Below, piece by piece: positions 1,895 to 19,612 of a stretch of DNA of 39,130 nt; the stretch's first letter is position 1, and the number at the start of each line of letters is the position of its first letter. The position numbers were made by a program, and so were the translations under genes. The notes beneath the pieces were generated by a model. The model saw nothing but the letters and a program-made list of their open reading frames with translations. It did no database searches and was not told where the DNA came from. Origin of the DNA: a virus. Taxonomy: Duplodnaviria > Heunggongvirae > Uroviricota > Caudoviricetes. The stretch spans positions 1-39,130 of IMG/VR virus record IMGVR_UViG_2563366972_000008; one strand, 5' to 3'.

Positions 1895-1927
1895 ATAAAA
1901 AAGGCGTCATTCCTGACGCCCTTTATT
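1895..1927. terminator. Hairpin terminator between J and lom, probably bidirectional
   Basis: Inverted repeat GGCGTCA-ttcc-TGACGCC flanked by an A-run upstream and T-rich tract downstream. Confidence 0.5.
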
Positions 1928-1942
1928 GGGGTTATAAATATT

Positions 1943-4900
1943 TCAACGAATACTGATGCCGGAAGCGGCTTTTTTGGTCACAATCACCGTACAGTCGGTG
2001 ATATTGCCTGCCCCCTGATTGCCTTTCTGGAAAATCTTAAACTCCAGAGTGACGCTTCCCCTGCCACTCGGCATATCAATAACTGCACTGTAACTACCGG
2101 GAATGGCCCCTTTAGTTTCTCTGGATGCGATTAATACGCCGTTTTTGCGAACTTCAAAACCATAACCCGTGTATCGCGTGCCTCCTGGGTTATTTCCGCT
2201 CCCCGGATCGTCATACGCTATACCGTTAAAAATAATGGGCGGAATAATAATCTGGCGGTCAAAGTTATGATCATCGCTGATGGTGACTGTAACCGTACCG
2301 TTTGGTGTTTCCGTGTTACCCCACGTACCGACTTTTTTCGGGAAGGCTTTTGATACAGCTTTAACGAAATCTCCTCTGACCTGGGTCGCCTCCAGCATGC
2401 CCTTAATCGTACAGTTCTGGTTAATCGTGACATTGTTGAGCGTTCCTGAGTTCGCATTCACACTGCCACTGATATCCGCATTTTTCGCCGTCAGTCTCCC
2501 GTCTGATGTCAGGGAAAATGCCGGAGGATTACCGCCGCTGGTAATGGTGGGGGCCGTCAGGCGTTTCAGGAACACTTCATTCATGAATATCTGATCGCCC
2601 TGACCAACAAACATCGGCTTTGTGTTGCCATTCGCAGGATTAATCATCGCAATCCTGTCTGCTGCCAGCAGCACCTGACTCTGCATGCCGTCAGGGGTGT
2701 TCTCAATACCGGCACCGATACCCGCAATATAAAGGCGTCCGTCCTGCATCTGCTGCAGCTTCACTGCCCACATGCTGTTCAGGTTATTATTTGTATCAAC
2801 CTGAACCTTCTGTATCTGCTGGATCGCTGCACTCTGGTCTTCCAGTTTCTTATTGACGGTCTGTGTTATTTCATTGCTGACATCCGTTATGGACGTCCTG
2901 ATTTCAGTCAGGTCAGGCGCAAGCTGACCGTTATCAATCTGCGTCCACAGCTCCTGAGCCAGATGGGTTTTCCCTATCTCGCCTTTGAAAAAATCCAGAT
3001 AGCCTGATGCATCATCACTCGGCTGACCGACAGCCTCCACGAATGCCGATTTGCCAACGGTGTTCACACTGCGAACGTAAAAATAATAATCATGGCCCGG
3101 TTTGATATTGATACTGGCGGCTATCCAGTACAGTGCCGTACCAAGATAACGCGCGCTGGTTTCAACCTGCCTGATATCCGCAATCCGTTTTTCCGAGAAC
3201 CAGAACTCAAACTGTACCGTCGGGTCATAAACCGCAAGATGCGGCGTGGCGGTTATCTGAAAATAGCCCGGTGTCAGCTCAATCCGAGACGGCGCTGCCG
3301 GTGCGGCAATCCGGAACGATACCGATGCCGGATCGCCCTGCTGTCCCCACGCATTTACCGCCCGGACTGTCAGCCTGTAGTTCCCCAACGCCAGTTGTGT
3401 GAAGCGGTATGTGGTTTCCGTCGTCCGGGCCGTGCTGACCAGCCGCTCACTGCCGTCGTCCGCTGTTACGGTCAGACGGAGCAGGAAGCTCACGCCCTTC
3501 ACCACCTTCGGTGTGTCCCAGCGCGCCAGCACCTGATATTCCCCGCTGTCTGCGGTGACTTCGGCAGTCAGGTGCTGCACCGCTGGCGGCGTGACACCAT
3601 TCACCGTGCCGCTCTGGTCGCCGTCAAAGTGCGCCCCGTTATCCACGATGGCCTCTTTTTCCGGCACATGCTGCACGGCAGTGATGGCATACGTGCCGTC
3701 GTCGTTCTCACGGATACTCACACAGCGGAACAGGCGCTGGCGCAACGTCGGCAACTTCAGCCCCCACACGCTGTATTCAGCAACGCCGTCAGGAACACGG
3801 CTCACTTTCACCTTCACGCCGTCGGTGACGGACTGGACCTCCACGCTGACCGGATTACCACCTCCGTCAACCAGGCTTATCAGCGTGGTGCCGGAGGATG
3901 GCAGCGTGATTTCACGGTCGAGCGTCAGCGTCCGGGTCTGGCTGTTCACCGCCAGCACGCGCCCGCCGGTGCTGATACCCGCATAGTCATCATCGCAGAT
4001 TTCAATGACATCCCCCGGTACATGGCGAAGCCCTTCCGCACCCACGCTGAAGTCCACGGTCTGCGTTTCCAGCAGTTCCGTTTTAATCAGCCACAGCCCG
4101 GCGCGGTGCGCCTGCCCCCGACTGGTACAGCCAAAGGCATCCATCTTCGTGACGTTACGACCGTAACGGGCAATGGCCTGCGTGTCCTCCACAAGCTCTG
4201 TCGCCGTCTCCCAGCCGTTATCCGGGTCAATCCAGTTCACCTCAACGGCATTATGGCGGTCCTTCAGGGCGCTGAAGCTGTAGCGGAACGGCGCGCCATC
4301 ATCCGGCATCACCACATTACTGCGGTTATAGGTCCACACCTTATCCGACGGTCGGTCCTGCACAAACGTCAGCGTCTGCCCGTTCCATACCGGCATACAG
4401 CGCATCGCCGAGCAGAAATCACTGAGCACATCCCACGCCTTACGCTGTGTGGTCAGGTACGCATTACAGGTGATGCGCGGCTCCGTGCCGCCAAAGCCGT
4501 CCGGCACTGACTGGTCGCAATTCTGGCCGATGACATACAGCGCCCATTTATCCACATCCGCCGCACCAAGACGTTTCCCCATGCCGTAGCGCGGATGGGT
4601 CAGCATATCCCACAGACACCAGGCCATGTTGTTGCTGTATGCCGGTTTAAACGTTCCGTCCCAGATACCGCTGTATTGCCGCGTCTGCGGGTTATAGTTC
4701 GACGGCACCTGCAGAATACGCCCGCGCAGATGATAATTACGGCTCACCTGCTGGCTGCCGAACTGCTCCGAATCCACCTGTACGCCGACCAGTGCCGTGT
4801 TCGGGTAGCACTGTTTCACATCGATGATTTCGGTGTATGACGACCAGAGCGTTTTGTTCTGCAGCTGGTCTGTGGTGCTGTCCGGCGTCATCCTGCGCAT

Positions 4901-5440
4901 CCGTATACTGAACGGGCGCGGCGGCAGGTTACCCACCACCACCGAGGCCAGATACTGCGAGGTGGTTTTGCCCTTAATGGTGATGTCTTTTTCCGTCACC
5001 CAGCCACCATTACGCTGTATCTGAACCAGCAGGCGGACTTCCGACGGATTCCTGTCCCCCTTTGAGGTGGTTTCCACCAGTGCCTGCACGCCGAAGGTAA
5101 AACGCAGTCGGTCAATGTTTGCCGACGTGATGGTCCAGGTGATCGGCGTGTCGTATTTCACTTCCGTACCCAGCACCGTCTCGGAACCGGAGGATTCAAA
5201 CCCCTCCGGCGGAGTCTGCTCCTGCTCACCTGCCCGGAACACCACCGTGACGCCGGATATATTGGTATTCCCCTCACTGTCCAGCACCGGCGTACTGTTC
5301 AGCAGCACGCTTTTTAATCCATCCACCGGACCTTCAATCGGCCCTTCGCTGATGGCATCGATCACACTCAGCAGCTGCGTGGACTTCAGGTTGTCCTTCG
5401 CTTCGCGCGGGGTATGCCCCTTACTGCTGCCTTTACCCAT
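1943..5440 (-). CDS. J: Tail tip / host specificity protein J
   Basis: 1165-aa ORF in the J position between I and lom; size and context match the lambda central tail fiber. Confidence 0.9.
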
Positions 5441-5500
5441 TCGTCATGCTCCATAAACGATAAAACCGCCCGGAGGCGGTTTCACATAAAACATTTTGCA

Positions 5501-6172
5501 TCAGCGACCAATCACCACAACCTGACCACCGTCCCCTTCGTCTGCCGTGCTGATCTCCTGAGAAACCACCCGCGACCCCACACGCATTTCACCGTACAGA
5601 ACAGGCAAAACATTGCCCTGGGCAACCATGTTATCCAGTGAGGAGAAATAGGTGTTCTGTTTGCCGTTATCTGTACTGGCTGCCGTGGGCGTCCTGGCTT
5701 TCGGTGCCAGCATCTGCGCCACACCACCGAGCACCATACTGGCACCGAGAGAAAACAGGATGCCGGTCATACCACCGGCCCCAATGGCTGCCCCCCATGC
5801 TGCAAGGGTGGCTCCGGCAGTAAAGAATGATCCGGCAATGGCGGCAGCCCCCAGAACAATCTGGAATACGCCCCCTGACTTGGCCCCGGCGACTCTGGGA
5901 ACAATATGAATCACAGCGCCGTCAGGCAGAGTCTCATGTAACTGCGCCGTTAACCCGGACGTGCTGACGTCCCGCCCGGCAATCCGTACCTGATACCAGC
6001 CGTCGCTCAGTTTCTGACGAAACGCCGGGAGCTGTGTGGCCAGTGCGCGGATGGCTTCAGCCCCCGTTTTCACACGAAGGTCGATGCGGCGGCCAAATCG
6101 TTGCAAATCCCCGTAAAGGCAGATGCGTGCCATTCCCGGTGACGCCAGAGGGAGTGTGTGCGTCGCTGCCAT
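5501..6172 (-). CDS. I: Tail assembly protein I
   Basis: 223-aa ORF with Gly/Ala-rich hydrophobic C-terminal half, between K and J as in lambda. Confidence 0.8.
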   Translation of the reverse strand: MAATHTLPLASPGMARICLYGDLQRFGRRIDLRVKTGAEAIRALATQLPAFRQKLSDGWYQVRIAGRDVSTSGLTAQLHETLPDGAVIHIVPRVAGAKSGGVFQIVLGAAAIAGSFFTAGATLAAWGAAIGAGGMTGILFSLGASMVLGGVAQMLAPKARTPTAASTDNGKQNTYFSSLDNMVAQGNVLPVLYGEMRVGSRVVSQEISTADEGDGGQVVVIGR

Positions 6173-6822
6173 TTGTCGGTATACCTCTCTCGTTTGCTCA
6201 GTTGTTCAGGAATATGGTGCAGCAGCTCGCCGTCACCACAGTAAATGGCGGCATGATTCGGCACCGATGAACCAAAGCAGCACAGCAGCACATCGCCCGG
6301 TTGTGCTGATGACAACGCCACCTGATACAGCCCTGTGGCCTCCAGATTATCCAGATAGAGATTCTGACCGTGACGCCACCAGTCATCCTCGCGATGAAAA
6401 TCCGGCATCTCAATCCCCGCCAGATGGTAAGCATCCCGGAACAGCGTGTAACAGTCCGTCACCCCGTGCTCAAAGCGCCGCCCGGAAAGATGTGGCACAC
6501 AGCGGAACTTGTGAATCGCCCCCCGGCAAACCAGCCACCACGGCAAATCACTCTGCACCTGCAGCCGCCGGTCGGTCTCACTCAGCCAGGGCAGACCACC
6601 GGGGTGGCTGTGGACCAGCGCCACAATCTCTCCCTGCATTTCTGCACTCAGCCAGTCCTCCGGCGACATCCGGAAATACGCCTCCGGCTCACCGGATATA
6701 TTCACGCAGGGAAAATATCTTTCCCCCTCCGGTGTTCTCACCACGAAGCCACACGACTCCGCTGGCGCACATCGCCGGGCGTGCGCCAGAATCGCTGATT
6801 CTGTCTCTGTCATGGGATTCAC
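6070..6822 (-). CDS. K: Tail assembly protein K (NlpC/P60 and JAMM-like)
   Basis: Translation MTETESAILAHARRC...HSHPGG matches lambda K as recalled; true start probably the ATG giving MTETES. Confidence 0.8.
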   Translation of the reverse strand: MNPMTETESAILAHARRCAPAESCGFVVRTPEGERYFPCVNISGEPEAYFRMSPEDWLSAEMQGEIVALVHSHPGGLPWLSETDRRLQVQSDLPWWLVCRGAIHKFRCVPHLSGRRFEHGVTDCYTLFRDAYHLAGIEMPDFHREDDWWRHGQNLYLDNLEATGLYQVALSSAQPGDVLLCCFGSSVPNHAAIYCGDGELLHHIPEQLSKRERYTDKWQRRTHSLWRHREWHASAFTGICNDLAAASTFV

Positions 6823-7517
6823 TGCGAAAGTTTGTTAATGGAAAGGAAGCCGCCAAAGTTGCCGACGTTATTGCGAAACTTACAGCCACTCAGGCATTTG
6901 CTACATTTATCCTTCGTGATATCGGACGTTGGCTGGTCATATTCATCCGCGACAGCCGGGCCATCATAACCGCACTCATCGCCGCGGTAGATCCAGGTGC
7001 AGGTGTTGGCCAGCATGATGCGCCCCGGAAAAACAGCGCCATCCGTTTCCGTCGGTGTGGACAGCACAAAAGAGGCACTGACCGCGCTCAGTTCGCTGCA
7101 CTGTTCGATGCGCCAGCGGCTGATCACCTCCTGCTCCGGATCGGCGTCACTGTTTCCGTTGACGAAGTTCACCGCATCCAGAAAACGGGCGTAAACCTTA
7201 CGCCGGACCACCGTTCCGCCGACCAGACTCTGCAGATCTTCCGCCATCCCGGTGACCATGCCGTACAGATTAGAGACTTTCAGCGTTGGCCTTGCACTGG
7301 CTCCTTTGCCGTTCATCTCAAATCCGCTTCCATGAATGGGATAGGCCTGATACTGCCGCCCCTGCCAGGTGACTGGTTCACCTTTTTCGTTCTGCTCATT
7401 ACAGAAGAAATAACGATCTCCGCCGACCTCTGTCAGATCAATTTCCCAGAGCACGACCAGCGCGGATTGCTCCGTTTTAGTGCACTCATTGAGTGTTTCC
7501 TGCTGTATATCCTGCAT
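6819..7517 (-). CDS. L: Minor tail protein L
   Basis: 232-aa translation MQDIQQETLNECTKTEQSALVVLWEIDLTEVGG... is near-identical to lambda L as recalled. Confidence 0.9.
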   Translation of the reverse strand: MQDIQQETLNECTKTEQSALVVLWEIDLTEVGGDRYFFCNEQNEKGEPVTWQGRQYQAYPIHGSGFEMNGKGASARPTLKVSNLYGMVTGMAEDLQSLVGGTVVRRKVYARFLDAVNFVNGNSDADPEQEVISRWRIEQCSELSAVSASFVLSTPTETDGAVFPGRIMLANTCTWIYRGDECGYDGPAVADEYDQPTSDITKDKCSKCLSGCKFRNNVGNFGGFLSINKLSQ

Positions 7518-7873
7518 CAGTGAGTGACCTCTTCAAAGGTACAGTTAAAATCGGTATACATGGCATTATCCGAAATGCTCCACTCCCTGCAGACAACCCG
7601 GACAGTCCTGTTGTGTTTTGGCGGACGCCACAAAAAAGCACGAATCCCGGCATGACGGGATAAAAAACTGTCCAGCGCGGCACGGGAATATTCATCTGTG
7701 ACACGAAATACCGGTTTAAACGTTTTCAGATCCGCATTCAGACCACCAGCCCGTCGCTGTTCATATCCGTCACCAAACTTTACCGTAATAACTGATGGCT
7801 TTCGTGTCGTCTCCATCCCCTCACGGGGGATCCAGTTAAAAACTTCAGGCTCAGGCACTGTACAATCCTCCAT
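7517..7873 (-). CDS. M: Minor tail protein M
   Basis: Conserved FNWIPREGM...VKFGDGY resembles lambda M. Start uncertain: ATG 7873 fits the alignment, ATG 7816 has the better RBS. Confidence 0.7.
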   Translation of the reverse strand: MEDCTVPEPEVFNWIPREGMETTRKPSVITVKFGDGYEQRRAGGLNADLKTFKPVFRVTDEYSRAALDSFLSRHAGIRAFLWRPPKHNRTVRVVCREWSISDNAMYTDFNCTFEEVTH

Positions 7874-10800
7874 CCCGACGCGATGACTGCATAATTGACA
7901 CAACCCTGCTGTCGATCAGATCCACCAGTCCCCTGGCTGAGCGCGCATCTATCTCGCCATTGCTCCCTTGATTCTGAATGCTGATGTGATACACGGGAGA
8001 ATAAACAAATCCACCGCCACCATTCACATTTCCAATGGCCCTGACCCCAAGAGAGCCGTCCGCTGCCCGTGTCAGTGGCATGATTGCTTCAGGCCCGGCC
8101 TCGCCCATCAACCCGGCACCTTTCGCAAAAGCAAAATACGTCGGTGTATCCACAATAGTGTTACTGTAAGCACTCAGATTTGCCGATGTGTAAACACCAC
8201 CTTTTGCGTTTGCCACTGCCCCCGAAATCCATCCGCCGACCGTACCAAGCCACCCTCCGGCACCGGAGAGTGATTTCAGTCCGTTAACAATGGCTGCATT
8301 CATCAGAATTTTTGAAACTTCCCGGAGAACTGAACTCCCCCAGTTCCTCCAGTCCACAACATTCCCGGCCAGTGCATCGGAAATATTTGATACCAGCCCG
8401 TCCATCGTGGAAACGACAGCATCTGCCGCCTGTGAAGCATAATCGGTGGCACTGTCTGCCCAGTTGGTCAGTCCCTCCTGGAGTCCGGCATTCCAGTTAT
8501 TACGTAAAGCATCGGCCTTTGCATAATAATCCTGCTGATCGCTGAGACGCTCTTCCAGATATTTTTTATTCAGTTCTTTCTCCTGTTTCCACAGGGCTTC
8601 TTCAATTTCTCCGGCCTGATACTGTCTCAGCAGCTCGTTATTTTTCTGCTCAAACGCCTGCCGGATACTCCACATTTCCTGGAGTCGTTCACGCATCCGT
8701 GAGCCTTCACCATATCCCAGCAACTGCGCTTCGTCAGATGCCCGGGCACTGGCATTACTGTCCGCCAGACTGCTCTCATACGCAGCAAGCTGCTCACGAA
8801 TCTTTTTCTGGTCGATGAGTGCTGCATTCTGCAAAAGCGTTTTTTTCTGCGCTTCTGACAGGGTTGATAATTCGCCCTGACTGACCTGATATTTCATCTT
8901 AGCCAGTTCAGTATTCTGCCCTGCCAGTGCTATCTGCTCTTTCTGCTGTTTAATCAGCCGTTTATAAATATCTTCTGTTTTTTCCGCTTCGGTCTTTTTA
9001 TGCGCTTTGGGTTTATTTGCCTGGTTATTTCGCCATGCATCCAGTGAATTATTAATATAATTCAGTCTTGCTGTCTGATATGCCTCTCCCACAAAGCCGA
9101 GATCATCCGCAGCATAACCCAGGCGGGCACGCTCACGGGCTTCCCCCTTCAGGCGGGACAGAGCCAGTTCGCGCTCGCTGTTATTCAGTGCTGTCTGCTG
9201 TTTATCATCCAGGGTGGCCTGTGGCAGCCGTAATGGTACATTCACCAGCCCCTGACGCTGCTGAAGTAACTCATTACCAAGCCCGAGAAGGTGATTAAAC
9301 TCAGTGTACTGACCATTCATGATCAACAGGGACTGATACGCTTTATTTTGCTCCGCCGCCTGTTGACGAATCAACGCCACCCGTCGCTCCTCCAGCCCGG
9401 CAAGCACATCCTGAATGGATTGCGCTTTGCCCTGCATTTGAGTGAGGCGAGACTGTTCAACTGCCAGTTGATTTGTTGCTTCTGCAAGCCCTTCTGTGAC
9501 AGTTTTTACCGACGTCATGTGGTTAATCATAAAACCGTTATCGGTTGTCCAGCCCGGGTTTGCCAGCACATACTGATAGCCAGCAATTTTTTCCTGTAAG
9601 GATTTAATCTTACTTTTCTGCTCGTCAATTAACCTGTTTTGCTCATCAAGTGCCTGCCGCGTCTTTTCCTCATTATCTGACGCTTCAGGAAGCGACATTG
9701 CCGACGTTTTCTGGCGAATTTCGTCGATTGTTGCGGCATACTGGCGTGCAGATTCTCTGGCCTGCTCCTGATTCTGATACATCGTGTACCAGGCCGCGGC
9801 TCCCAGCATGACAAGCCCCGGCACACCCCCAACCAGCCCCAGTGCCCCACTTAACAAACGGCTCCCCACTGACGTGACAGTATTCAGCGTTGTCTGTGCT
9901 GCTGTTCTGGCCGCAATATTACGGGTAAGTGATGCCTGGGCAGCAGCCAGTTTCGCTTCTGCGGCTGCCTGCCTTTCTGTACCACGGGTAGCCACAACTG
10001 CCTGTTGCGCACGATAAACCGCCGCACGCGCCCTGGCTGTTGCTATCTGTGTCCCCCGGAGTTGCGCTTCCGCAAGAGCCACTTCGTTTCTGGCTGCAGT
10101 AATTAATCCGGCAGTTGCAGATCCAGCAGAAGACGCCATATTGCCAAAATATCGGGCTACCCCGACGGCAACCAGAGCACCGGCAGCGGTTGCCACGGTG
10201 TCAATATTGCCTGCAATACCATTCAGCACACCGGAGAGCGTCTTCGTCACTCCGCTTGCCTCGTTCGCACCACCAACCCAGGCCATAAAGGCGTTTTCAA
10301 CTTTGGTTGCAGAGGATGAAACCGTATCAGGCATTGCCGCATATTCATCACGTAATGCCCCAAGCTGACTAATCAGTGCAGGAACAACCTTATCGGTGGT
10401 CAGTTTTCCGTTATCCGCCATGGCCTTCAGATCCTTACGGGCAACACCCATTCCCGCAGCCAGCGCACGAATAACACGATCGCCGTTCTCATTCACCGAG
10501 TTAAACTCTTCACCGCGCAGCACTCCCTGCGCCAGTGCCTGACTGAACTGCGTGATCACCGAACTGGCTTCTGCTGTACTGGCACCGGATAAATTCAGGC
10601 CCGTGGAGATCGCCTCGGTGACTTTCAGTACTTCCTCAGAACTGTAACCATACTCCCGCATGGAAGCTGCAGAACGGGCAAAAAGGCGTGCGTTATCAGA
10701 AAACGCCGTCCCCGTTTTCTGGCTGATCGCCATTAATTCACGCTGTGATGCCTGAAAATCATCACTGGACTGTGAGGCCTGCTTCAGACGGGCATTTACT

Positions 10801-11084
10801 GAACTCCATTCATCCGCAAGAGATATAAGATGTCCAGTGGCAAAAGCACCGGCAAATGCGCCAGCCATGTTCAGTGCCGAAGATTTAGCTGTATTTATCT
10901 GATCCGTCACTTCTGCCAGTGCACGCCGCATTTCACGGGATGCAGCAGCGGACTGCCGGCCTCCGTTCTGCATGGTACGGTAGTAATCCTGCCCCATACG
11001 CGAAGCCCGGGAGATCTCTGACTGGAATGACCGGGAATTTGCCGAGATTTTAATAATCAGTTCACGTAATGTCGCCACACTCAT
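7851..11084 (-). CDS. H: Tail tape measure protein (H-like)
   Basis: 1077-aa ORF, Ala/Gln-rich and coiled-coil-like, between the G/T chaperone and M. Confidence 0.9.
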   Translation of the reverse strand: MSVATLRELIIKISANSRSFQSEISRASRMGQDYYRTMQNGGRQSAAASREMRRALAEVTDQINTAKSSALNMAGAFAGAFATGHLISLADEWSSVNARLKQASQSSDDFQASQRELMAISQKTGTAFSDNARLFARSAASMREYGYSSEEVLKVTEAISTGLNLSGASTAEASSVITQFSQALAQGVLRGEEFNSVNENGDRVIRALAAGMGVARKDLKAMADNGKLTTDKVVPALISQLGALRDEYAAMPDTVSSSATKVENAFMAWVGGANEASGVTKTLSGVLNGIAGNIDTVATAAGALVAVGVARYFGNMASSAGSATAGLITAARNEVALAEAQLRGTQIATARARAAVYRAQQAVVATRGTERQAAAEAKLAAAQASLTRNIAARTAAQTTLNTVTSVGSRLLSGALGLVGGVPGLVMLGAAAWYTMYQNQEQARESARQYAATIDEIRQKTSAMSLPEASDNEEKTRQALDEQNRLIDEQKSKIKSLQEKIAGYQYVLANPGWTTDNGFMINHMTSVKTVTEGLAEATNQLAVEQSRLTQMQGKAQSIQDVLAGLEERRVALIRQQAAEQNKAYQSLLIMNGQYTEFNHLLGLGNELLQQRQGLVNVPLRLPQATLDDKQQTALNNSERELALSRLKGEARERARLGYAADDLGFVGEAYQTARLNYINNSLDAWRNNQANKPKAHKKTEAEKTEDIYKRLIKQQKEQIALAGQNTELAKMKYQVSQGELSTLSEAQKKTLLQNAALIDQKKIREQLAAYESSLADSNASARASDEAQLLGYGEGSRMRERLQEMWSIRQAFEQKNNELLRQYQAGEIEEALWKQEKELNKKYLEERLSDQQDYYAKADALRNNWNAGLQEGLTNWADSATDYASQAADAVVSTMDGLVSNISDALAGNVVDWRNWGSSVLREVSKILMNAAIVNGLKSLSGAGGWLGTVGGWISGAVANAKGGVYTSANLSAYSNTIVDTPTYFAFAKGAGLMGEAGPEAIMPLTRAADGSLGVRAIGNVNGGGGFVYSPVYHISIQNQGSNGEIDARSARGLVDLIDSRVVSIMQSSRRDGGLYSA

Positions 11085-11123
11085 TCTCCGGACGAAAAAA
11101 ACCGCCGAAGCGGTTATGTTGAC

Positions 11124-11414
11124 TCACTGAGACACTATTAAAAGCGCGTTTTCCAGTCCGGCAAATGGATCTGAGACGCCTTCTGTCTGCTCTTGTTCCC
11201 ACTGAAGAAGCGCATCATTCAGTGGGACTTTGACACCCTGCGCACCGTAAACCGCAGAAACTATCTGGGCAGCCCGGATATCAGCCCGCTCGTCACCCAG
11301 CGGGCTGAACCTGTCAAATTCTGCCCACATCATGATTTCTGATGCGGACATTTCCCGGCGTAACTCTGACAATGTGCGCCCCATCCTGAGCGCCAGCATC
11401 ATCAGAAAACGCAT
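11124..11414 (-). CDS. T: Tail assembly chaperone T segment, expressed as a G-T fusion by -1 frameshift
   Basis: ORF in the -1 frame relative to G, directly downstream of a slippery A-run at the end of G. Confidence 0.6.
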   Translation of the reverse strand: MRFLMMLALRMGRTLSELRREMSASEIMMWAEFDRFSPLGDERADIRAAQIVSAVYGAQGVKVPLNDALLQWEQEQTEGVSDPFAGLENALLIVSQ

Positions 11415-11425
11415 CCCCGGAAGCG

Positions 11426-11812
11426 CTACTTTTTTTTAACCTCGCCGGCATCACTGATCAGTTCCAGAGACTGCCGAAGAAGCCGCGCATGCACCGGGCC
11501 ATACACGGCAATCACCCGTTCACGATCATCCTCTGAAAATACAGGTTGCAGTCCGGTATCACACAGAACATCAATGAACAGTTCAACATCTGCCTCCAGA
11601 TTTCGGCGGGCGCGCTCCGCAACGGATAACGGTGTCTCATCATCTTTTGCTTTAACGATCTCCTGCCAGCGCAACCAGGCTTCTGCAGAAGGTTCCCGTA
11701 ATACAACCGTTGCCCCTTCCCATTCAGGCACATCAACAGTTTTATGGCGAAACCCCGACATCGTTGCCAGTGCCAGATTGCGGATATTTTTAGTCATCAC
11801 ATCTATCCTCAT
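11426..11812 (-). CDS. G: Tail assembly chaperone G
   Basis: 128-aa acidic ORF between major tail protein and tape measure; ends ...GEVKKK with slippery site A_AAA_AAG. Confidence 0.7.
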   Translation of the reverse strand: MRIDVMTKNIRNLALATMSGFRHKTVDVPEWEGATVVLREPSAEAWLRWQEIVKAKDDETPLSVAERARRNLEADVELFIDVLCDTGLQPVFSEDDRERVIAVYGPVHARLLRQSLELISDAGEVKKK

Positions 11813-12516
11813 TAACTGACGGTAACAGTGCAGGAAGTGGAGGTCACCTTGTTAACAGGGCTTGCTGAGTCAGAAATCTCGCAGGTATACGCACCGGCAT
11901 CACCTGATGCTGCTGATGCCTTACTGAACGTTGCCGCCGTCTGTCCGGAAACAGGAGAACTACCTTTCTTCCAGACATAAGAATAAGGCGGCACACCACC
12001 GGCAGCCTCAACCACCATTTCGAGTTTCGCTCCGGCAGAAACCTGCAGCGTGCTGTTTAAATCGACTTTCACTTTCAGCGGCTCTGTCGTCAGCACAGGT
12101 TTACCTTTCAGACGCAGGGAAAACGTTGCAGCCACAACACCATTGGTTCCTGCAGACCAGGTATGCTGACGCACCTCTGCCATAAAGGTAAATCCGTTGC
12201 CTGACGGAAAAATAACTTTAAAGCCATACGTGGTGTCATTGTCATAGGCACTGCGCAACGCGTTCTGGGCAGCATTGAGATAAAAGTTGCCTGACATGGA
12301 AATCTCTGACGCGGCACCAAGGCCGTTAATATTTTCCTGCTCAACAGAACACAGCGTGGTGACATCAATATCCTGCTTTTGTCCTGCGGTAAACTGCACC
12401 TCTTTGATTGTACAGCTCAGGCCAAGATAGCTGGCAGAATCCAGGGTTTCTGCTGTTACCGGTGCAGACGAAATCATAATTTTCGTCAGTTGCGAACGCT
12501 CAAAATTAGAGGACAT
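11812..12516 (-). CDS. V: Major tail protein with C-terminal Ig-like domain (V-like)
   Basis: Position upstream of G; AGGAGA RBS before the ATG at 12516; C-terminal Ig-like region (GGVPPYSYVW...TCEISD). Confidence 0.8.
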   Translation of the reverse strand: MSSNFERSQLTKIMISSAPVTAETLDSASYLGLSCTIKEVQFTAGQKQDIDVTTLCSVEQENINGLGAASEISMSGNFYLNAAQNALRSAYDNDTTYGFKVIFPSGNGFTFMAEVRQHTWSAGTNGVVAATFSLRLKGKPVLTTEPLKVKVDLNSTLQVSAGAKLEMVVEAAGGVPPYSYVWKKGSSPVSGQTAATFSKASAASGDAGAYTCEISDSASPVNKVTSTSCTVTVS

Positions 12517-12575
12517 ACTCGTCTCCTGAAAATAAAAAACCCGCCAGCGGCGGGTGGATAAAATCATTAATGACC

Positions 12576-12920
12576 TCAGGCTATTACCTGGAATTCAAGC
12601 GTGGCTCTGCTCAGACGGGAGTCAGGATCATAACCCTGCGTTTTAGAAATAACGGAGGGTGCCAGTTTTCTTACCGCATCAAGCGCCTGCTCACGAATAT
12701 TATCTGCGTCATCAGGTACTGTCGCCCAGACATCGATCTGCACGGTAATTCTGGATTCAGCCTGACCATCAAGCACATCAGATGCCGTGTCAGACACCAC
12801 AGAAAACACCAGCCACGGCGGAGATACCGCAGGCTTTCCCTCCGTCAGCGGGACCACATAAGGATAAACCTGTCCTCCGGCCAGCTGAGACAGCAGGGAA
12901 TACAGTGTGGCTTCCCTCAT
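12576..12920 (-). CDS. Tail terminator / tail completion protein (U-like)
   Basis: 114-aa ORF directly upstream of the major tail gene in a coupled gene string. Confidence 0.65.
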   Translation of the reverse strand: MREATLYSLLSQLAGGQVYPYVVPLTEGKPAVSPPWLVFSVVSDTASDVLDGQAESRITVQIDVWATVPDDADNIREQALDAVRKLAPSVISKTQGYDPDSRLSRATLEFQVIA

Positions 12921-13366
12921 TTACTTAAGACCTCATCAATAGCCTGATTCATTCGCTGTATGGCAATCTGTGCTGCCAGTTCCTCTGTCGTATCGAAAGC
13001 CGGGCGAATGAACGGATGCGCGGGCATGTTTATCGTTCCCAGCTCCACAAAGCGCCAGTAAAACGCATTTCGGGGATCGCTGGCTTTCATGCTGTTATCA
13101 CTGTTTCCGGTTCGCAGGTTCCGTCCGCGAATGTGGACACCCGAGATAATTTCCCCCCGACGCTTTGAACGCTGAGTGAGAACAACCACATTTTTTTTCA
13201 GTTTCCCGGTTCGCTCCGGCGCACGTTCAACAACTGCATCCCGCATAACTTCAGCACCGGCACGGGTGGCATCGCGCAGTACCTTATTGTTTTCTGCCCT
13301 GCTGAGCGTCTCCAGATCCCGTGCAATATCCGCCAGACCTGAAAAATCAAGACTGAAATCCATCAC
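12917..13366 (-). CDS. Tail completion protein (Z-like, HK97 gp10-type)
   Basis: 149-aa ORF with ATGA-type overlap to neighbours in the head-tail joining block. Confidence 0.65.
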   Translation of the reverse strand: MMDFSLDFSGLADIARDLETLSRAENNKVLRDATRAGAEVMRDAVVERAPERTGKLKKNVVVLTQRSKRRGEIISGVHIRGRNLRTGNSDNSMKASDPRNAFYWRFVELGTINMPAHPFIRPAFDTTEELAAQIAIQRMNQAIDEVLSK

Positions 13367-13701
13367 ACATTCCCCTTCTGAGAACAGAGTATCTCAAGCC
13401 GGGTGGCGCGTGCATCCGGTATTGGTGGACCTTCTATACCCAGAATGGCCCCTTTAAATGCACCGGTCAGCACTTTCAGACGTGAAGTCGCTGTCACATC
13501 GCGCCGGAATCTCATCCAGACTCTGACCGTAGCCTGAGCGGTTTCTGCTCCACCTGAGATTCTCTCCCTCCCGCTGATACCCTTAACTTCTGCCCATACG
13601 GTTGCCCCCTCCGTCATTGTCTCCACCGGATGCCCTGACGGAGAACGGACGGTGGTGACATTCAGAATAGTTACGCGATCACGTAACCTGCCCGCCTGCA
13701 T
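13363..13701 (-). CDS. Head closure / head-tail adaptor protein
   Basis: 112-aa ORF between head-tail connector and tail completion genes. Confidence 0.65.
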   Translation of the reverse strand: MQAGRLRDRVTILNVTTVRSPSGHPVETMTEGATVWAEVKGISGRERISGGAETAQATVRVWMRFRRDVTATSRLKVLTGAFKGAILGIEGPPIPDARATRLEILCSQKGNV

Positions 13702-13709
13702 GGTTCCTC

Positions 13710-14027
13710 CTACAAAGGAATAAAACGATAAGGCTCCAGCAGAGAAGAAAAACCAAACGGGATTGGTGCCTTACTGACATCTGAGGAATTTTCCCGGTTT
13801 TCGTACCAGTGCCCGACCAGCAACATGAGCGCCAGCAAAACATCATCAGCTATAAGCACCCCTTCAGGATCACTCTCTGGCACCGTCTCCTCATAAAGCT
13901 TACGGTTGATAAAATTTTCTGCCTTACGGCAGGCAGCCCGGAAATACAGCATCAGTAACTCATCATCAGTTGCATCATCTGTATCAATACGGCACTGCGC
14001 CCTGAGTTTTTCCACTATTGCTGCCAT
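13710..14027 (-). CDS. Head-tail connector protein (gp6-like)
   Basis: ORF immediately downstream of the major capsid gene; start chosen at ATG 14027 with CAGGAG RBS. Confidence 0.65.
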   Translation of the reverse strand: MAAIVEKLRAQCRIDTDDATDDELLMLYFRAACRKAENFINRKLYEETVPESDPEGVLIADDVLLALMLLVGHWYENRENSSDVSKAPIPFGFSSLLEPYRFIPL

Positions 14028-14071
14028 CAGAAACTCCTGCCCGCAGCACTGTGCGGGCATAAAAAACTGCA

Positions 14072-15295
14072 TTACGCAGCGGCTTTCTGGCGGGTTGCAG
14101 CCCCAATTTTCATCAGCTTAATCGCCTGAGAATCCACCAGCATACCGCCGGTTCGCTTGGTGGTATAAAAGCCCACAAACGGTTTGTTGGTGTAAGGATC
14201 GCGCAGGATGCGGGTGCCGATGCGATCAACGATGGTATAGCCACGTTTGAAATTACCAAACGCAATGGCTTTTGCATCGGCGGCAATATCCGGCATCTGC
14301 TCATTTTCAACGATGCCATACCCTGCCAGAGAAGAAGGCTGACCCAGCTCAATACCCGGACGCCACAGATAATTTCCGTCGTTATCCTTCAGCAGACGAA
14401 TGGCAAACAGGCTGCTGTTGTTCATCATGAACTTCGCGCCGCTGCGGTGCGCCTTGCGCAGGGTGTAAATCAGTTTAATAATCGCATCGGCGGTCACGCC
14501 AGAAGCCGCACCGGAAGCAATGTGCTGAAGTTTGCCAAATGCACGGGTCTTGTCATCTTCATCAGTGGACTCATAAGCCAGAAAACCTTTTGGTTTTTTG
14601 CTGCCGTCGCCACTGGTAAAGGCAATTTCTTCCTGTTCGGCAAATTCCAGCGCCAGTTCACTGTTGATCCAGTCTTCCACATTGAAGAAAGCATCATCGA
14701 GCATTTTCTGGGTGGCCTGCGGGTTGCCGTAGATTTCCCCCATAAAGGGTTCAATCAGACCCAGTTTTGAGGTGGCGGTTTCAGGACGTGCATCCGTTTC
14801 CCCCACCCATCCGGACGTTGTGCCGCCCAGATTCACCAGTTTTTTATAATCCGAGCCACCGAGGGTGATCACAGTGGCTTCCTGGCGCATCACCACCTCA
14901 TCTTTCAGCAGCGTCAGAATGGTGCGATCCAGTTCTTCCGGAATGGCATAACCACCATCTTCATCATTGCCCACCTGCAGCGCCTTACGCTCAAGCTCAC
15001 GCAGACCGTCTTCACGCCCCTTGCGCATAAAACCGATAAACGCTTCTTTATGTTCACCGGCAACTTTATTTTGCGTGCCGCCTGCCGGACGTTTAACTTC
15101 AGCCAGCTCAGCCTCAAGATCGCTTTTCAGGTTCTCCAGCTCGCTGATTTGCCCGTTCAGGCTTTCCACCTGTTCGGCCAGCTTGCCTTTTTCCTGTTCG
15201 ATCGCGTCAATGCGCTTGTCGTTTTTTGCCTTAAAATCGTCAAACTTCTGCTGCAGCTCCTGCGCGACCTGCTCCACATCTTTAATGTCAGCCAT
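14072..15295 (-). CDS. Major capsid protein, HK97 family
   Basis: 407-aa ORF with N-terminal coiled-coil delta-like region, downstream of the prohead protease. Confidence 0.85.
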   Translation of the reverse strand: MADIKDVEQVAQELQQKFDDFKAKNDKRIDAIEQEKGKLAEQVESLNGQISELENLKSDLEAELAEVKRPAGGTQNKVAGEHKEAFIGFMRKGREDGLRELERKALQVGNDEDGGYAIPEELDRTILTLLKDEVVMRQEATVITLGGSDYKKLVNLGGTTSGWVGETDARPETATSKLGLIEPFMGEIYGNPQATQKMLDDAFFNVEDWINSELALEFAEQEEIAFTSGDGSKKPKGFLAYESTDEDDKTRAFGKLQHIASGAASGVTADAIIKLIYTLRKAHRSGAKFMMNNSSLFAIRLLKDNDGNYLWRPGIELGQPSSLAGYGIVENEQMPDIAADAKAIAFGNFKRGYTIVDRIGTRILRDPYTNKPFVGFYTTKRTGGMLVDSQAIKLMKIGAATRQKAAA

Positions 15296-15309
15296 TATTT
15301 TTCTCCTGG

Positions 15310-15960
15310 TTAAAATTTAAGATTTTTCAGTGCATTCAGTGCGGCATCCACATCCTCAGCATCACGCAGGGATAAAGCGCCATATCCCCCGGCCATGAAT
15401 GCTTTGGCCTGGGTTCGCGAGAGTCCAACATCGCGCAGGACCCGCTCAATAATTTTCTGATCAGGGATCTCCCCACGCGCCAGCGCATTTTTCACATCGC
15501 TGATACGTGCCTCATCATTGCAAGGAAACGTCACCAGACTGACCTCCCACAGGTCGATCTCTTTCAGCAGGAATACCCCTTTTTCACGGTCGTACTCCCA
15601 GTCTTTCAGGATGTAGCCAATAGAAAGGCCGGTTAAAGAACCGGCCTTCATATGGGCATGTGCACGTTTTGCCAGGGGATCATCATCAACGAGTAATCGC
15701 CCCCTGACATAAAGCCCGACATCATCTTCTTTCATTTCGGTGTACACACCGATGGGCTCATCCATACGGTGCTGCCAGAGCAACGCAGGCAGCGCCTTTT
15801 TTTCGCTCCATTTCTGGAGTGTTGTGGTAAAGGCACCGGGGACCACCACATCATCGTGGCTGTCCTTAACACCAAAAACAGAACCGTAACCTTCAAATTC
15901 CCCGGAATCACTGACGGATTTCAGGTTCAGCGGTATATCAAGACGCTGTTTTGTCTGCAT
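15310..15960 (-). CDS. Prohead protease, HK97 family
   Basis: ORF between portal and capsid; AGGAGAG RBS before the ATG at 15960. Confidence 0.8.
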   Translation of the reverse strand: MQTKQRLDIPLNLKSVSDSGEFEGYGSVFGVKDSHDDVVVPGAFTTTLQKWSEKKALPALLWQHRMDEPIGVYTEMKEDDVGLYVRGRLLVDDDPLAKRAHAHMKAGSLTGLSIGYILKDWEYDREKGVFLLKEIDLWEVSLVTFPCNDEARISDVKNALARGEIPDQKIIERVLRDVGLSRTQAKAFMAGGYGALSLRDAEDVDAALNALKNLKF

Positions 15961-17179
15961 CTCCACTCTCCTTTTTCTTACCGTTGTCATCGCCAGCAGA
16001 GGGACTGGTGGTCATGTTCATCGGTGTCAGATACACATCACCGCCCGGGCGAGGATTCATATCCTCCAGATCACGGCAGTCATTAGGGGAATAAATCCCC
16101 CAGTTGATCCCCGTGGCATACGCTTCAAAGCGGGATTTCATGTCGCCACGCAACAATGCTCCGGCATTAAATTTGGCGTAAAACTTCCCCTGCTTGCTCT
16201 CCCTGACCAGCCCTGTATTGATCCGCTGTTCAATACGGGTCAGATACGGCACAAGGGAATAGTTAATGAAACCAAGCCCCAGCTCTTCAATATTGTTGAA
16301 GGTGGCGCGATCGGTGTTCTGCACCATATGCAGCGGCACGCGGAACAGGCGACAGATTTCTTCCAGCTGAAACTTGCGGGTTTCCAGGAACTGGCTGTCC
16401 TCGGCATTCAGTGCCACCGTTTTCCAGTCCAGCCCCATTTCCAGAATCATCGGACGATGAGAGTTTCCCAGCCCGACATGCCGTTCCTCAAAGTCCTTTT
16501 TGATACGCGCATAAGCCTGATCAGAAAGTTGTTGATCCGTACGCAACACACCGGATGTCACAGCGCCGTTACCAAACAGCCTGGCGCCGTGCTCCTCAGT
16601 TGCCGCTGCCAGTGAAATGGCCTCACGCGCATATGCAATGGGATTCAGCCCGACCAGCCCGTCCAGCGTCAGAGTACGCACATGCCAGATTTCATCCTGG
16701 GTCAGCACATCCACGGAACCATCCGGAAACGTCACCTGATAAACCGGCTGCCACTGACAGTTCAGCTTCGGCTCCACACAACCCGGATCTATCGGAAGAA
16801 GCTCCACCACTTCTCCCAGCGCCTTCACCTTGTAAGCGTAAAAATTACCCCGCAGACACAGGCAGACGATAACCAGCTCCCAGAATTCCTGCGGTGTCAT
16901 GTAGCCATTGGGTTTTGCCGAAATCAGCTTATGCAGTCGTTCATCCACCGCCCGTGTTTTAAGGGTGCCGGTGATTTTGTAGAGGCTGCAGGGCAGCATA
17001 CCAACAGACTCCGCCAGCACTCTGACGCAGGAATACACCGCCGTCAGCCGCATGGCCCGCTGACTGCTGATCCGCTTTCCGGTATAGGTGTCGTATGACA
17101 ATCCCAGCTCTTCCGCAAGCATCCCGGGTGTTGTAACGGGAGTGTTATTTTTGCGTTGAAAAAGCCCCTGGAAAAACAT
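15938..17179 (-). CDS. Portal protein, HK97 family
   Basis: 413-aa ORF directly downstream of the large terminase. Confidence 0.85.
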   Translation of the reverse strand: MFFQGLFQRKNNTPVTTPGMLAEELGLSYDTYTGKRISSQRAMRLTAVYSCVRVLAESVGMLPCSLYKITGTLKTRAVDERLHKLISAKPNGYMTPQEFWELVIVCLCLRGNFYAYKVKALGEVVELLPIDPGCVEPKLNCQWQPVYQVTFPDGSVDVLTQDEIWHVRTLTLDGLVGLNPIAYAREAISLAAATEEHGARLFGNGAVTSGVLRTDQQLSDQAYARIKKDFEERHVGLGNSHRPMILEMGLDWKTVALNAEDSQFLETRKFQLEEICRLFRVPLHMVQNTDRATFNNIEELGLGFINYSLVPYLTRIEQRINTGLVRESKQGKFYAKFNAGALLRGDMKSRFEAYATGINWGIYSPNDCRDLEDMNPRPGGDVYLTPMNMTTSPSAGDDNGKKKESGDADKTAS

Positions 17180-17361
17180 TACTCACCTCCGGAGGCGACC
17201 CACTGACCGCGATCGAGATAACGCGCAACCAGCCACGACCAGCACAGGCACAGCGCCCCGGCAACAACAAAACCTGCCGGGGGATAAATCAGCCATGCGC
17301 CGTACGACAGCAAAAGCGCCCCCAGCACGCCCACCAGTGGTGTGAGAATTATCAGAAACAT
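17179..17361 (-). CDS. Small hydrophobic protein of unknown function
   Basis: 60-aa ORF with two hydrophobic stretches, tightly packed between TerL and portal. Confidence 0.35.
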
Positions 17362-17372
17362 AATGACCTCGG

Positions 17373-19130
17373 TTAAAGCGAGCGAATACCAACGCTGACC
17401 AGATGCTCAGACAGATCCGGCTCCGGTTCACCGCCATTGACCAGCATCCGGCTCATTGCTGTAAACATCGCAACAGGGCCGTCGATTTTGGCTTCCGGCG
17501 TGGATTTATTCGGGAAGATATTGTCGTTTTTGTCCGGTTTTACCGTAACGTTAGACATCATCCAGTTCATGACCGGATGATTGCTGTGGTGGAAACGTCC
17601 GGCATAAACCAGTGATTCCGTTTCCTTCATAGCCTCTGACAGATTGCGGACCGTCTGCGGAACTTCCACCAGCGGTATCCCTTCTTCAGCCAGCGCCAGA
17701 CTGAACTGCATTGCGCTCCACGGGTCAAATCCCAGTTCCCTGAGGTTTTCACCGCCAATCCATTCCAGTAAGTCACTTTTTATCTGAGCATGATCGATAA
17801 CATCACCATCCGTCAGGATGAGCTTCCCCATCTCTGCCCACTTCCGGTAAAGTTCTGCCTGCTGCCGTGAACACCGTTCCAGTCGCCCTTCCGGAAGCCA
17901 GAATTTAAAATCGGCATGAACATGCCCGTTATCCGTTCGCCAGAGTTTTGCCGCCGCACAGATATCAATCTTATGAGCAAGGTCGACGCCGACCCACATG
18001 GGATACGTTTTCAGCTCATGCTGTGGAGCGATGTATTCGCACTTCTCCCACTTAATCATGTCCATCCAGGCAGATTCGGCAGTGACCCACACATTCATGT
18101 GTTTGGTAAAAAAATTCACCCGCGCAGAAACCTGCTCCTTCGCCTTTTTCGCCAGACGACGCAGATCATCCCAGCGTTTACAGATGCCCAGGCCGGGATT
18201 CGCTTTCTGCCAGACCGTTTCATCAAACGGATCATCTCCCTCATCGAGGGTGTAAATAATCGCAAAGTAGGAGTCGTCTTTTACAGCGCCCTCCACATCG
18301 CTGTTATAGCCACGCAATACCTTGATGGCGTAATCACGCTGCTCGTAACAAATCCCTTCCTTGTTAAACCCTGCCGTGGTGATACCAAATAACAGGGACT
18401 GCAGGCGGGCACCGGTTGCCGTTTCCAGAACGTCCCACACGTCGCGGGTTTTATGTGCATGCAGCTCATCAATAATGGCGCAGTGGATGTTCAGACCATC
18501 CAGGTTGTTTGCATCCGAGGAAAGCGGTTCAAATTTTGATGCGCTCTGCTCCTGGTAAATCGCCAGCTTGTTGAAATCAAACAACCGCCCGAGTGTCGAC
18601 CGGGCTTTTCTGACCATATTTTTGGCGTCTTCAAACACAATTCTGGCCTGGTCACGCGTGGTGGCGGCTGAATACACCTCAGCACCGCCTTCACCATCTG
18701 CCCCCGTCATATACAGGCCGATACCCGATGACAGAGTTGATTTTGCGTTTTTACGGGCGACTTCGTTGTACGCCGTCCGGAACCGGCGCACCATCACCGG
18801 ACGTCCGCTGCCATCGCTGCGCATGACAACTTCCCCGGTCTCTTCATTCACCAGCGGAATGACAAAACCAAAAATATTAATGAGGATAAATACATGCCAG
18901 TCCATCAGTTCAATGGGCTGGCCTGCCAGCGCCCCTTTTACATGAGGCACAAATTTGTAGAAATTCAGGATGTGCTGCGCACGGGGTTCACTGAAATAAA
19001 TCCCCCGCTCTTCGCCGTACTTCAGATCATCAAGAAAACGCTGGCAGGCCAAGCGGACAAATTCGCCAGCAACAATTTCTCCTGCAACAACACGTTCGGC
19101 GTAGCGGATCCCGTCAGCCACTTTTGCCAT
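17373..19130 (-). CDS. Terminase large subunit
   Basis: 585-aa ORF following the small terminase subunit; ATPase and nuclease arrangement typical of TerL. Confidence 0.9.
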
Positions 19131-19612
19131 CAGTCTCTCGCTTTTAAAAGCTCCGCCAGCGGATCAACATCATCCGGTCCGGCGATATTTACTTTAGCCC
19201 GGCTTGCCGGTGACATACCAAACTCTGCAAGCATTGCCCGGATCCGCTTCCAGGCATCCGCTTTCATTGCCGCCGCGGGGTGCGCCTTAATCAGTACATC
19301 ACCGCTCTGCGTTTCCGTGCGGTAGGTATACCCCTCAACATCGAGTGTTTCGCAGTGATGCCGATATTCGGTGTAGGCTTCCACCAGCAACTCGAGCGCA
19401 CGCGCATCAAGCTGAGAAATGATCCCTTCCGCATTCAGCTCTTCCGCCATTCGCCTGAACCAGTACTTCCCCTGAGCCCCTAAATGCTGCGGAATTTTAG
19501 GAAGACCTTTTTCATCCTTTTTAGCGGTTTTTTTGTGGTCTTTAACGGGGCGCTTTGAGGGGTTGCCTCGAATCAAATGCAGGCGTGGCGGGGTTTTCGG
19601 AGGTCCTGACAT
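19130..19612 (-). CDS. Terminase small subunit (P27-like)
   Basis: 160-aa basic ORF directly upstream of and overlapping TerL, downstream of the HNH gene. Confidence 0.8.
   Translation of the reverse strand: MSGPPKTPPRLHLIRGNPSKRPVKDHKKTAKKDEKGLPKIPQHLGAQGKYWFRRMAEELNAEGIISQLDARALELLVEAYTEYRHHCETLDVEGYTYRTETQSGDVLIKAHPAAAMKADAWKRIRAMLAEFGMSPASRAKVNIAGPDDVDPLAELLKARD

Follow-up and report, generated by a model that had tools for sequence, protein, structure and literature searches.

The locus studied here raises the question of how the second of two small open reading frames lying between the tail tube gene and the tape measure gene of an HK97-like phage is expressed: as a gene of its own, or as the C-terminal part of a fusion reached from the first frame by ribosomal frameshifting. 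Among long-tailed phages, G-T frameshifting is a widely conserved trait, and in the functional model derived from lambda, G binds the tape measure protein and T binds the tube protein, G and G-T being made in a ratio of 30:1 (PMC5009743). In this study we analysed a stretch of 39,130 nt (IMG/VR record IMGVR_UViG_2563366972_000008), hereafter called the window, which resembles most of a ~39-kb HK97-like prophage and has phages phi467 and Evi (38.6-40 kb) as near relatives. On its minus strand, at about 1900-19600, it carries the genes for portal, protease, major capsid, head-tail connector, tube, G/T, tape measure and distal tail. The gene order, the -1 offset of the two frames, an in-phase slippery heptamer and the persistence of the layout in relatives for which joined products are annotated together support a programmed -1 frameshift making G-T. 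We therefore hold it very likely that the locus uses a programmed -1 ribosomal frameshift of the lambda G/G-T type, in a gene pair of the HK97 gp13/gp14 family; according to PMC5009743 and PMC10885494, this class of tail-chaperone frameshift was described by Xu, Hendrix & Duda (2004).

Table 1. Features of the tail-chaperone locus; positions are those of the window.
Feature	Position	Strand	Remarks
Major tail (tube) protein gene, C-terminal Ig-like domain	11812..12516	-	phrog_158 (E 1e-109); Pfam Ig_2/Ig_3, weak Phage_TTP_11
Gene G, tail assembly chaperone, 123 aa, ending ...GEVKKK-TAG	11426..11797	-	PF06222 Phage_TAC_1 (E 1.1e-57); phrog_344
T segment, -1 frame, 101 codons + TGA	11124..11429	-	PF06223 Phage_tail_T (E 3.8e-19); base 11429 would be read twice
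Tape measure protein gene, 1077 aa	7851..11084	-	Phage_HK97_TLTM (E 6e-91), TMP_3, Tape_meas_lam_C; phrog_339
TAA stop of the -1 (T) frame	11436..11438	-	Abuts the 5' side of the heptamer; upstream limit of productive shifting; translation ...CRRG*KKVALPG
A8 run	11430..11437	-	Includes the A's of the heptamer
Slippery heptamer A_AAA_AAG	11429..11435	-	X_XXY_YYZ phase with G; sole 7 nt open in both frames
TAG stop of G	11426..11428	-	Abuts the 3' side of the heptamer
ATG taken by gene callers as start of a stand-alone T (96 aa)	11412..11414	-	11 nt after the TAG
GC-rich hairpin (GCGCUC...GGGCGC)	~11373-11393	-	Lies over the LALRMGRT codons of T
Terminator-like hairpin	11100-11115	-	AACCGCTTCGGCGGTT+TTTTT; T-run to ~11090; inside the 39-nt gap between T stop and tape-measure start
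Terminator-like hairpin	12539-12555	-	ACCCGCCGCTGGCGGGT+TTTTT; just upstream of the probable tube-gene start

The genes follow each other in the order tube, G, T and tape measure, all on the minus strand, with two small open reading frames between the tube and the tape measure genes (Table 1). The Pfam scores of both frames lie well above the gathering cut-offs, with 193.7 bits for G (cut-off 25) and 69.3 bits for T (cut-off 25.9), as found for members of the HK97 gp13/gp14 family; HK97 gp13 and the C-terminal part of gp14 match the same two models, PF06222 and PF06223. G itself corresponds to RefSeq WP_000164663, named 'phage tail assembly chaperone', and is 63% identical to the gp13 homologue of HK97/HK446. 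A join of 11797..11429 with 11429..11124 gives a predicted G-T fusion of 123 + 101 = 224 aa. This agrees with phrog_14766, a profile of 224 positions that is matched by G over positions 1-121 and by the T segment over positions 123-220; since the profile spans both parts, it represents a family of already-joined G-T proteins.

Gene starts were assigned from ribosome-binding signals and database calls. That of G is most likely the ATG at 11797 and not the ATG at 11812 of the maximal open reading frame, because GAGGA lies 8 nt upstream of the former, RefSeq calls it and the Pfam match begins there; the ATG at 11812 overlaps the TAA of the tube gene in a TAATG arrangement and has no Shine-Dalgarno (SD) sequence. 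The tube gene starts at 12516 as in RefSeq (705 nt), with GGAGA at a spacing of 5. On the tape measure gene two starts compete on the minus strand, an ATG at 11084 with GGAGA at spacing 0 and a GTG at 11078 with the same GGAGA at spacing 6. The orthologous tape-measure gene of E. coli UMNK88 is flagged as 'frameshifted' (pseudogene), whereas it is intact in the window. Two intrinsic-terminator-like hairpins with T-runs lie in this region. The putative terminators annotated in HK97 and HK446, which follow the tube gene and precede the tape-measure gene, occupy similar though not the same positions; both hairpins are presumably read through in antiterminated late transcription.

At the 3' end of G the minus strand reads ...GCC GGC GAG GTT AAA AAA AAG TAG CGC TTC CGG GGA TGC..., in which the G-frame codons are GTT (11440-11438), AAA (11437-11435), AAA (11434-11432), AAG (11431-11429) and TAG (11428-11426). 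The TAA of the -1 frame is made up of the T that ends GTT and the two A's that open the run. With TAA directly 5' of the heptamer in the -1 frame and TAG directly 3' of it in the 0 frame, both frames are open together over exactly 7 nt, and A_AAA_AAG fills the whole of this stretch in the X_XXY_YYZ phase. T lies at -1 relative to G and is open across the G 3' end, which is the layout of the conserved tail-chaperone frameshift. From this point the -1 frame reads *KKVALPGMRFLMMLALRM..., up to the TGA at 11126-11124; translated from further upstream of the T open reading frame it reads ...CRRG*KKVALPGMRFLMM..., and the predicted junction peptide of G-T is ...DAGEVKKKVALPGMR. A first-pass annotation had proposed that G ends in GTT AAA AAA AAG TAG, that A_AAA_AAG is its slippery heptamer and that the -1 peptide continues into a T frame at 11124-11414; the minus-strand letters agree with the first statement, the heptamer is in the correct phase at 11435-11429, and the coordinates, codons and peptide are all correct.

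The heptamer by itself is not rare. AAAAAAG occurs 15 times on both strands of the window, where 9.0 +/- 2.9 would be expected, and 15 or more copies were obtained in 3 of 100 shuffles; this excess is not significant and rarity was dropped as evidence, so that the argument rests on placement. The open frames of the window hold seven other in-phase copies of AAAAAAG, whose -1 frames close within 8-47 codons, and canonical in-phase X_XXY_YYZ motifs of any kind occupy 96 of 22,219 positions (0.43%). From the junction heptamer, the -1 frame runs for 101 codons through a Pfam domain. The placement thus exceeds chance, as the single place that permits a shift between the two Pfam-identified chaperone domains holds a canonical heptamer, and one that is the most shift-prone of those tested in E. 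coli (PMC5009743).

The same architecture is found in distant relatives. A comparison set of ten reference phage loci and three near-identical copies was fetched, and in all of them T is at -1 and an A_AAG-type motif lies near the end of G, with G identity falling to 29-33%. The motif itself varies: it is AGA AAA AAG TAG in the Stx-converting phage Stx2a_WGPS2, CGG GAA AAG in HK446 and HK97, GTG GAA AAG in Cronobacter ENT39118, GCG GGA AAG (that is G_GGA_AAG, the heptamer of lambda) in LMessi, GCA AAG TAA in Klebsiella phage ST13-OXA48phi12.4, and A_AAA_AAG in the Burkholderia phages Bcep176, phi1026b and KS9, whose G proteins are the 29-33% identical ones. A two-piece joined CDS is annotated in HK97 ('translated due to a -1 frameshift'), HK446, Bcep176 ('lambda T equivalent') and KS9. 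Moreover, an AAG-stop arrangement as at the present locus recurs in three other lineages, represented by Stx phage WGPS2, Klebsiella phage ST13-OXA48phi12.4 and one further relative (L089).

A wider sample gave the same picture. Eighty viral contigs were recovered with a T alignment, and T at -1 with an A_AAG-type motif is present in 78 of them. Their junctions read A8G followed by TAG (58 contigs), the HK97-type motif (16), A9 followed by TAG, hence A_AAA_AAA (2), GCA AAG TAG (2) and A7G (2), the last being the two exceptions. Among the 874 E. coli genomes that carry the junction, its 80 nt are identical, with A8G exact, in 670; A7G is found in 13 and A9G in none. The A-run keeps a stable length, and the idea that it serves as a general phase-variation switch was rejected on the latter counts. 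In the A7G allele (contigs L015 and L062, and the 13 E. coli genomes, e.g. NZ_CP122832.1 at 2977388-2977466) G would run on for 46 extra codons and T would be at +1. Ten of the 12 matches listed for this allele are pig isolates, nine of these being ETEC-numbered strains, a distribution that either a homopolymer sequencing error or clonal inheritance could produce.

The length of the A-run invites another reading, in which RNA polymerase stutters on A8 (template T8) and adds one A, after which standard translation would give the same G-T protein. One extra A would indeed fuse G to T in frame, with an identical ...EVKKKVALPG... junction, so that mass spectrometry cannot separate ribosomal from transcriptional slippage. 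Runs of 9 A or T make bacterial RNA polymerase slip efficiently, and the run here, at 8 A's, is one base below the length reported as efficient and short of the conserved run of at least 9 A/T that marks such cases (PMC5009743). Two relatives with 93-95% T identity (L056 and L061) do have A9 then TAG, around position 1200; their run has the length at which polymerase slippage is efficient, and their A_AAA_AAA is still slippery. On the other hand, the same architecture exists with A6 (Stx phage WGPS2, phi1026b) and with no run at all in LMessi (GGGAAAG), in the Klebsiella phage (GCAAAG) and in HK97 (GGAAAAG), from which it follows that the conserved feature is the A_AAG ribosomal slip site and not a long homopolymer. 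We thus consider transcriptional slippage very unlikely as the explanation of the locus, and at most an add-on to ribosomal shifting in this lineage. As the slip site of this prophage lineage has become an A8 run enclosed by stops of both frames, G-T might be made by both routes at once, a ribosomal -1 shift and a polymerase stutter on A8, and the A7 alleles could then be real and still make some G-T by slippage; we hold this highly unlikely. If it were true, the G:G-T ratio would be tunable by homopolymer length, and the rare A7 alleles (13/874 genomes and 2/80 viral contigs) would be neither dead prophages nor sequencing errors.

Programmed ribosomal frameshifting as proposed here can be compared with three known systems. 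The closest is the gp13/gp14 pair of HK97 (NP_037708 / NP_037707), with HK446, HK544 and mEp234: these have the same Phage_TAC_1 and Phage_tail_T domains, about 63% identical in both parts, and in HK97 the pair likewise lies between the tube and the tape-measure genes, T is at -1 and a 224-aa fusion is annotated. The slip sites differ, as HK97 uses CGG GAA AAG (GGGAAAAG) five codons before the G stop, whereas here A_AAA_AAG is followed directly by TAG, and the dual-open stretch is 49 nt in HK97 versus 7 nt here. HK97 also has the moron gp15 between T and the tape-measure gene, which is absent from the present locus. Within the Stx-converting / PPompW-type prophages (e.g. Stx2a_WGPS2 gp50/gp49) A_AAA_AAG is again followed by TAG with T at -1, at about 67% identity, and the two frames are likewise annotated as separate genes; the differences are a run of A6 instead of A8, a dual-open stretch of 22 nt, and ATT where the ATG at 11414 stands here.

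With lambda the locus shares the mechanism, the gene position, a -1 shift at a heptamer ending in A_AAG, the T domain PF06223 and the lack of a detected conserved stimulatory structure. The G proteins are another matter: lambda G matches only Phage_TAC_2 (PF06894) and the present G only Phage_TAC_1, and BLASTP detected no pairwise similarity between them (E=4.9). Membership of the lambda gpG family was rejected for G on these grounds, which leaves lambda gpG as a functional analogue; between the T parts of the two phages the pairwise similarity is not significant. Furthermore, lambda shifts at G_GGA_AAG, six codons ahead of its G stop, and the heptamer of the present locus is of the dnaX type. 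The first-pass annotation had stated that the site reproduces the lambda G/G-T frameshift, and this holds for the mechanism, the gene position and the T family, but not for G, which belongs to the HK97 gp13 family, nor for the heptamer. Since G is homologous to HK97 gp13 and only T shares a Pfam family with lambda, the locus is best described as the HK97 version of a lambda-type mechanism.

The third system is E. coli dnaX (gamma/tau), which has the same heptamer A_AAA_AAG. Its frameshift relies on an SD-like element ~10 nt upstream and a stem-loop 5-6 nt downstream of the heptamer. Here the only SD-like element is a GAGG, 4 nt upstream of the heptamer, and it was rejected as an upstream stimulator as it is not conserved, being absent from the close relatives L073 and L005. 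Downstream, folding an alignment of 12 relatives revealed no conserved structure (-0.93 kcal/mol, covariation term 0), although single-sequence folds reached z=-1.5 over 141 nt and z=-2.5 over 70 nt. The main recurring hairpin begins at least 21 nt downstream of the heptamer, over the codons of the conserved T motif LALRMGRT, and with the weak alignment fold and the missing covariation this led us to reject it as a conserved stimulator. The GC-rich hairpin listed in Table 1 recurs in enterobacterial relatives and loosely in lambda, but not in the Burkholderia phages, and it shows no covariation; codon choice seems to have produced it incidentally, and it does not look like an RNA element with a function of its own. 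A scan of 11200-11650 against Rfam at E<=10 returned only chance matches far below gathering scores. The cassette is therefore not a stimulated one of the dnaX kind, and in the absence of a conserved RNA structure and of a correctly spaced upstream SD it is a lambda-style, heptamer-only site. Low-level shifting on the heptamer alone fits the lambda pattern (PMC5009743). With the dnaX stimulators lacking, a low efficiency is to be expected, not one of about 50%.

It has also to be considered whether T is an independent gene, translated from the ATG at 11414 or at 11402 by ribosomes that start de novo or reinitiate after terminating at the G stop, in which case the heptamer would be incidental. 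An ATG does lie just past the TAG, and RefSeq and several phage records annotate a T of 96 or 92 aa. The mere presence of this ATG, used by RefSeq, is no refutation of the frameshift, because its only SD-like element is a GGGG directly against it (spacing 0, where the SD spacings of the neighbouring genes are 3-8 nt), and because the matching codon in close relatives may be ATG, GTG, ATA or ATT. KS9 has no Met in the N-terminal motif of T, at the place in question. The ATG at 11402 encodes the conserved Met of the FLM motif and is preceded by a weak GGGGA at a spacing of 11; as a minor start, it might in principle give rise to a certain amount of independent or re-initiated T. Furthermore, all 9 aligned T-frame sequences share the linker Pro that precedes the ATG. 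In a codon-position test for coding in the -1 frame, made on the six codons of the linker, the three positions showed 3, 3 and 4 variable sites. The -1 offset and the slip motif persist to ~30% G identity, and independent genes would need neither; the curated records of HK97, HK446, Bcep176 and KS9 contain a joined product, and the T of lambda is known only as part of gpGT (PMC5009743). An independent T is, in our opinion, extremely unlikely, and the ATG at 11414 is probably just an internal Met codon of G-T.

Coming back to programmed ribosomal frameshifting, we infer the following course of events from the arrangement of the site. Most ribosomes would make G (123 aa) and terminate at the TAG, and a minority would slip back by one base on A_AAA_AAG, the tRNA-Lys re-pairing from AAA-AAG to AAA-AAA. 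Alternatively, with the TAG already in the A site, a peptidyl-tRNA-Lys in the P site could move back from AAG to AAA, giving the same product. In the 'shifty stop' literature, a stop codon flanking a slip site is described as enhancing shifting. A_AAA_AAG is decoded by the single tRNA-Lys of E. coli (PMC5009743). After the slip, translation would continue as GTA GCG CTT CCG GGG ATG..., yielding the 224-aa G-T protein (...GEVKKK-VALPGMRFLMM...), and a low, fixed shift frequency would set the G:G-T ratio. By analogy with lambda, G would have the tape measure protein as its binding partner; the latter would be coated by G together with the G portion of G-T, the T domain would recruit the major tail protein, and neither G nor G-T would end up in the virion.

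The distribution of the locus and its treatment in databases show where such an assignment is of use. A region of 901 nt around it is 97-99% identical to phages phi467 and Evi and to a set of vB_Eco prophage-derived records, and among 5,426 complete E. coli genomes 903 have it, each time in the chromosome. The inspected records of this phage group list G and T as separate genes, T being named 'phage tail assembly protein T' or DUF4035 and occurring in versions of 96 and 92 aa with different starts. An exact-sequence look-up of the 224-aa fusion in a collection of 15 billion proteins gave no match. A tblastn search with the fusion returned 226 phage records, and among the matches listed all but one of those that include both parts align in two pieces. 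The separate G and T records and the absence of the exact fusion reflect annotation practice rather than biology.

The junction is thus a textbook feature of a very common prophage, one that stands without a join annotation in the inspected records of its lineage. What is known of tail assembly or of recoding is not extended by it. Its main value is for annotation, and the module is carried by about one in six complete E. coli genomes. The locus is also a natural and clean case of a frameshift signal in minimal form, in which a stop codon of one or the other frame abuts each end of the heptamer, and its real second product is most likely the 224-aa G-T fusion, where the inspected records show separate genes with inconsistent starts for T.
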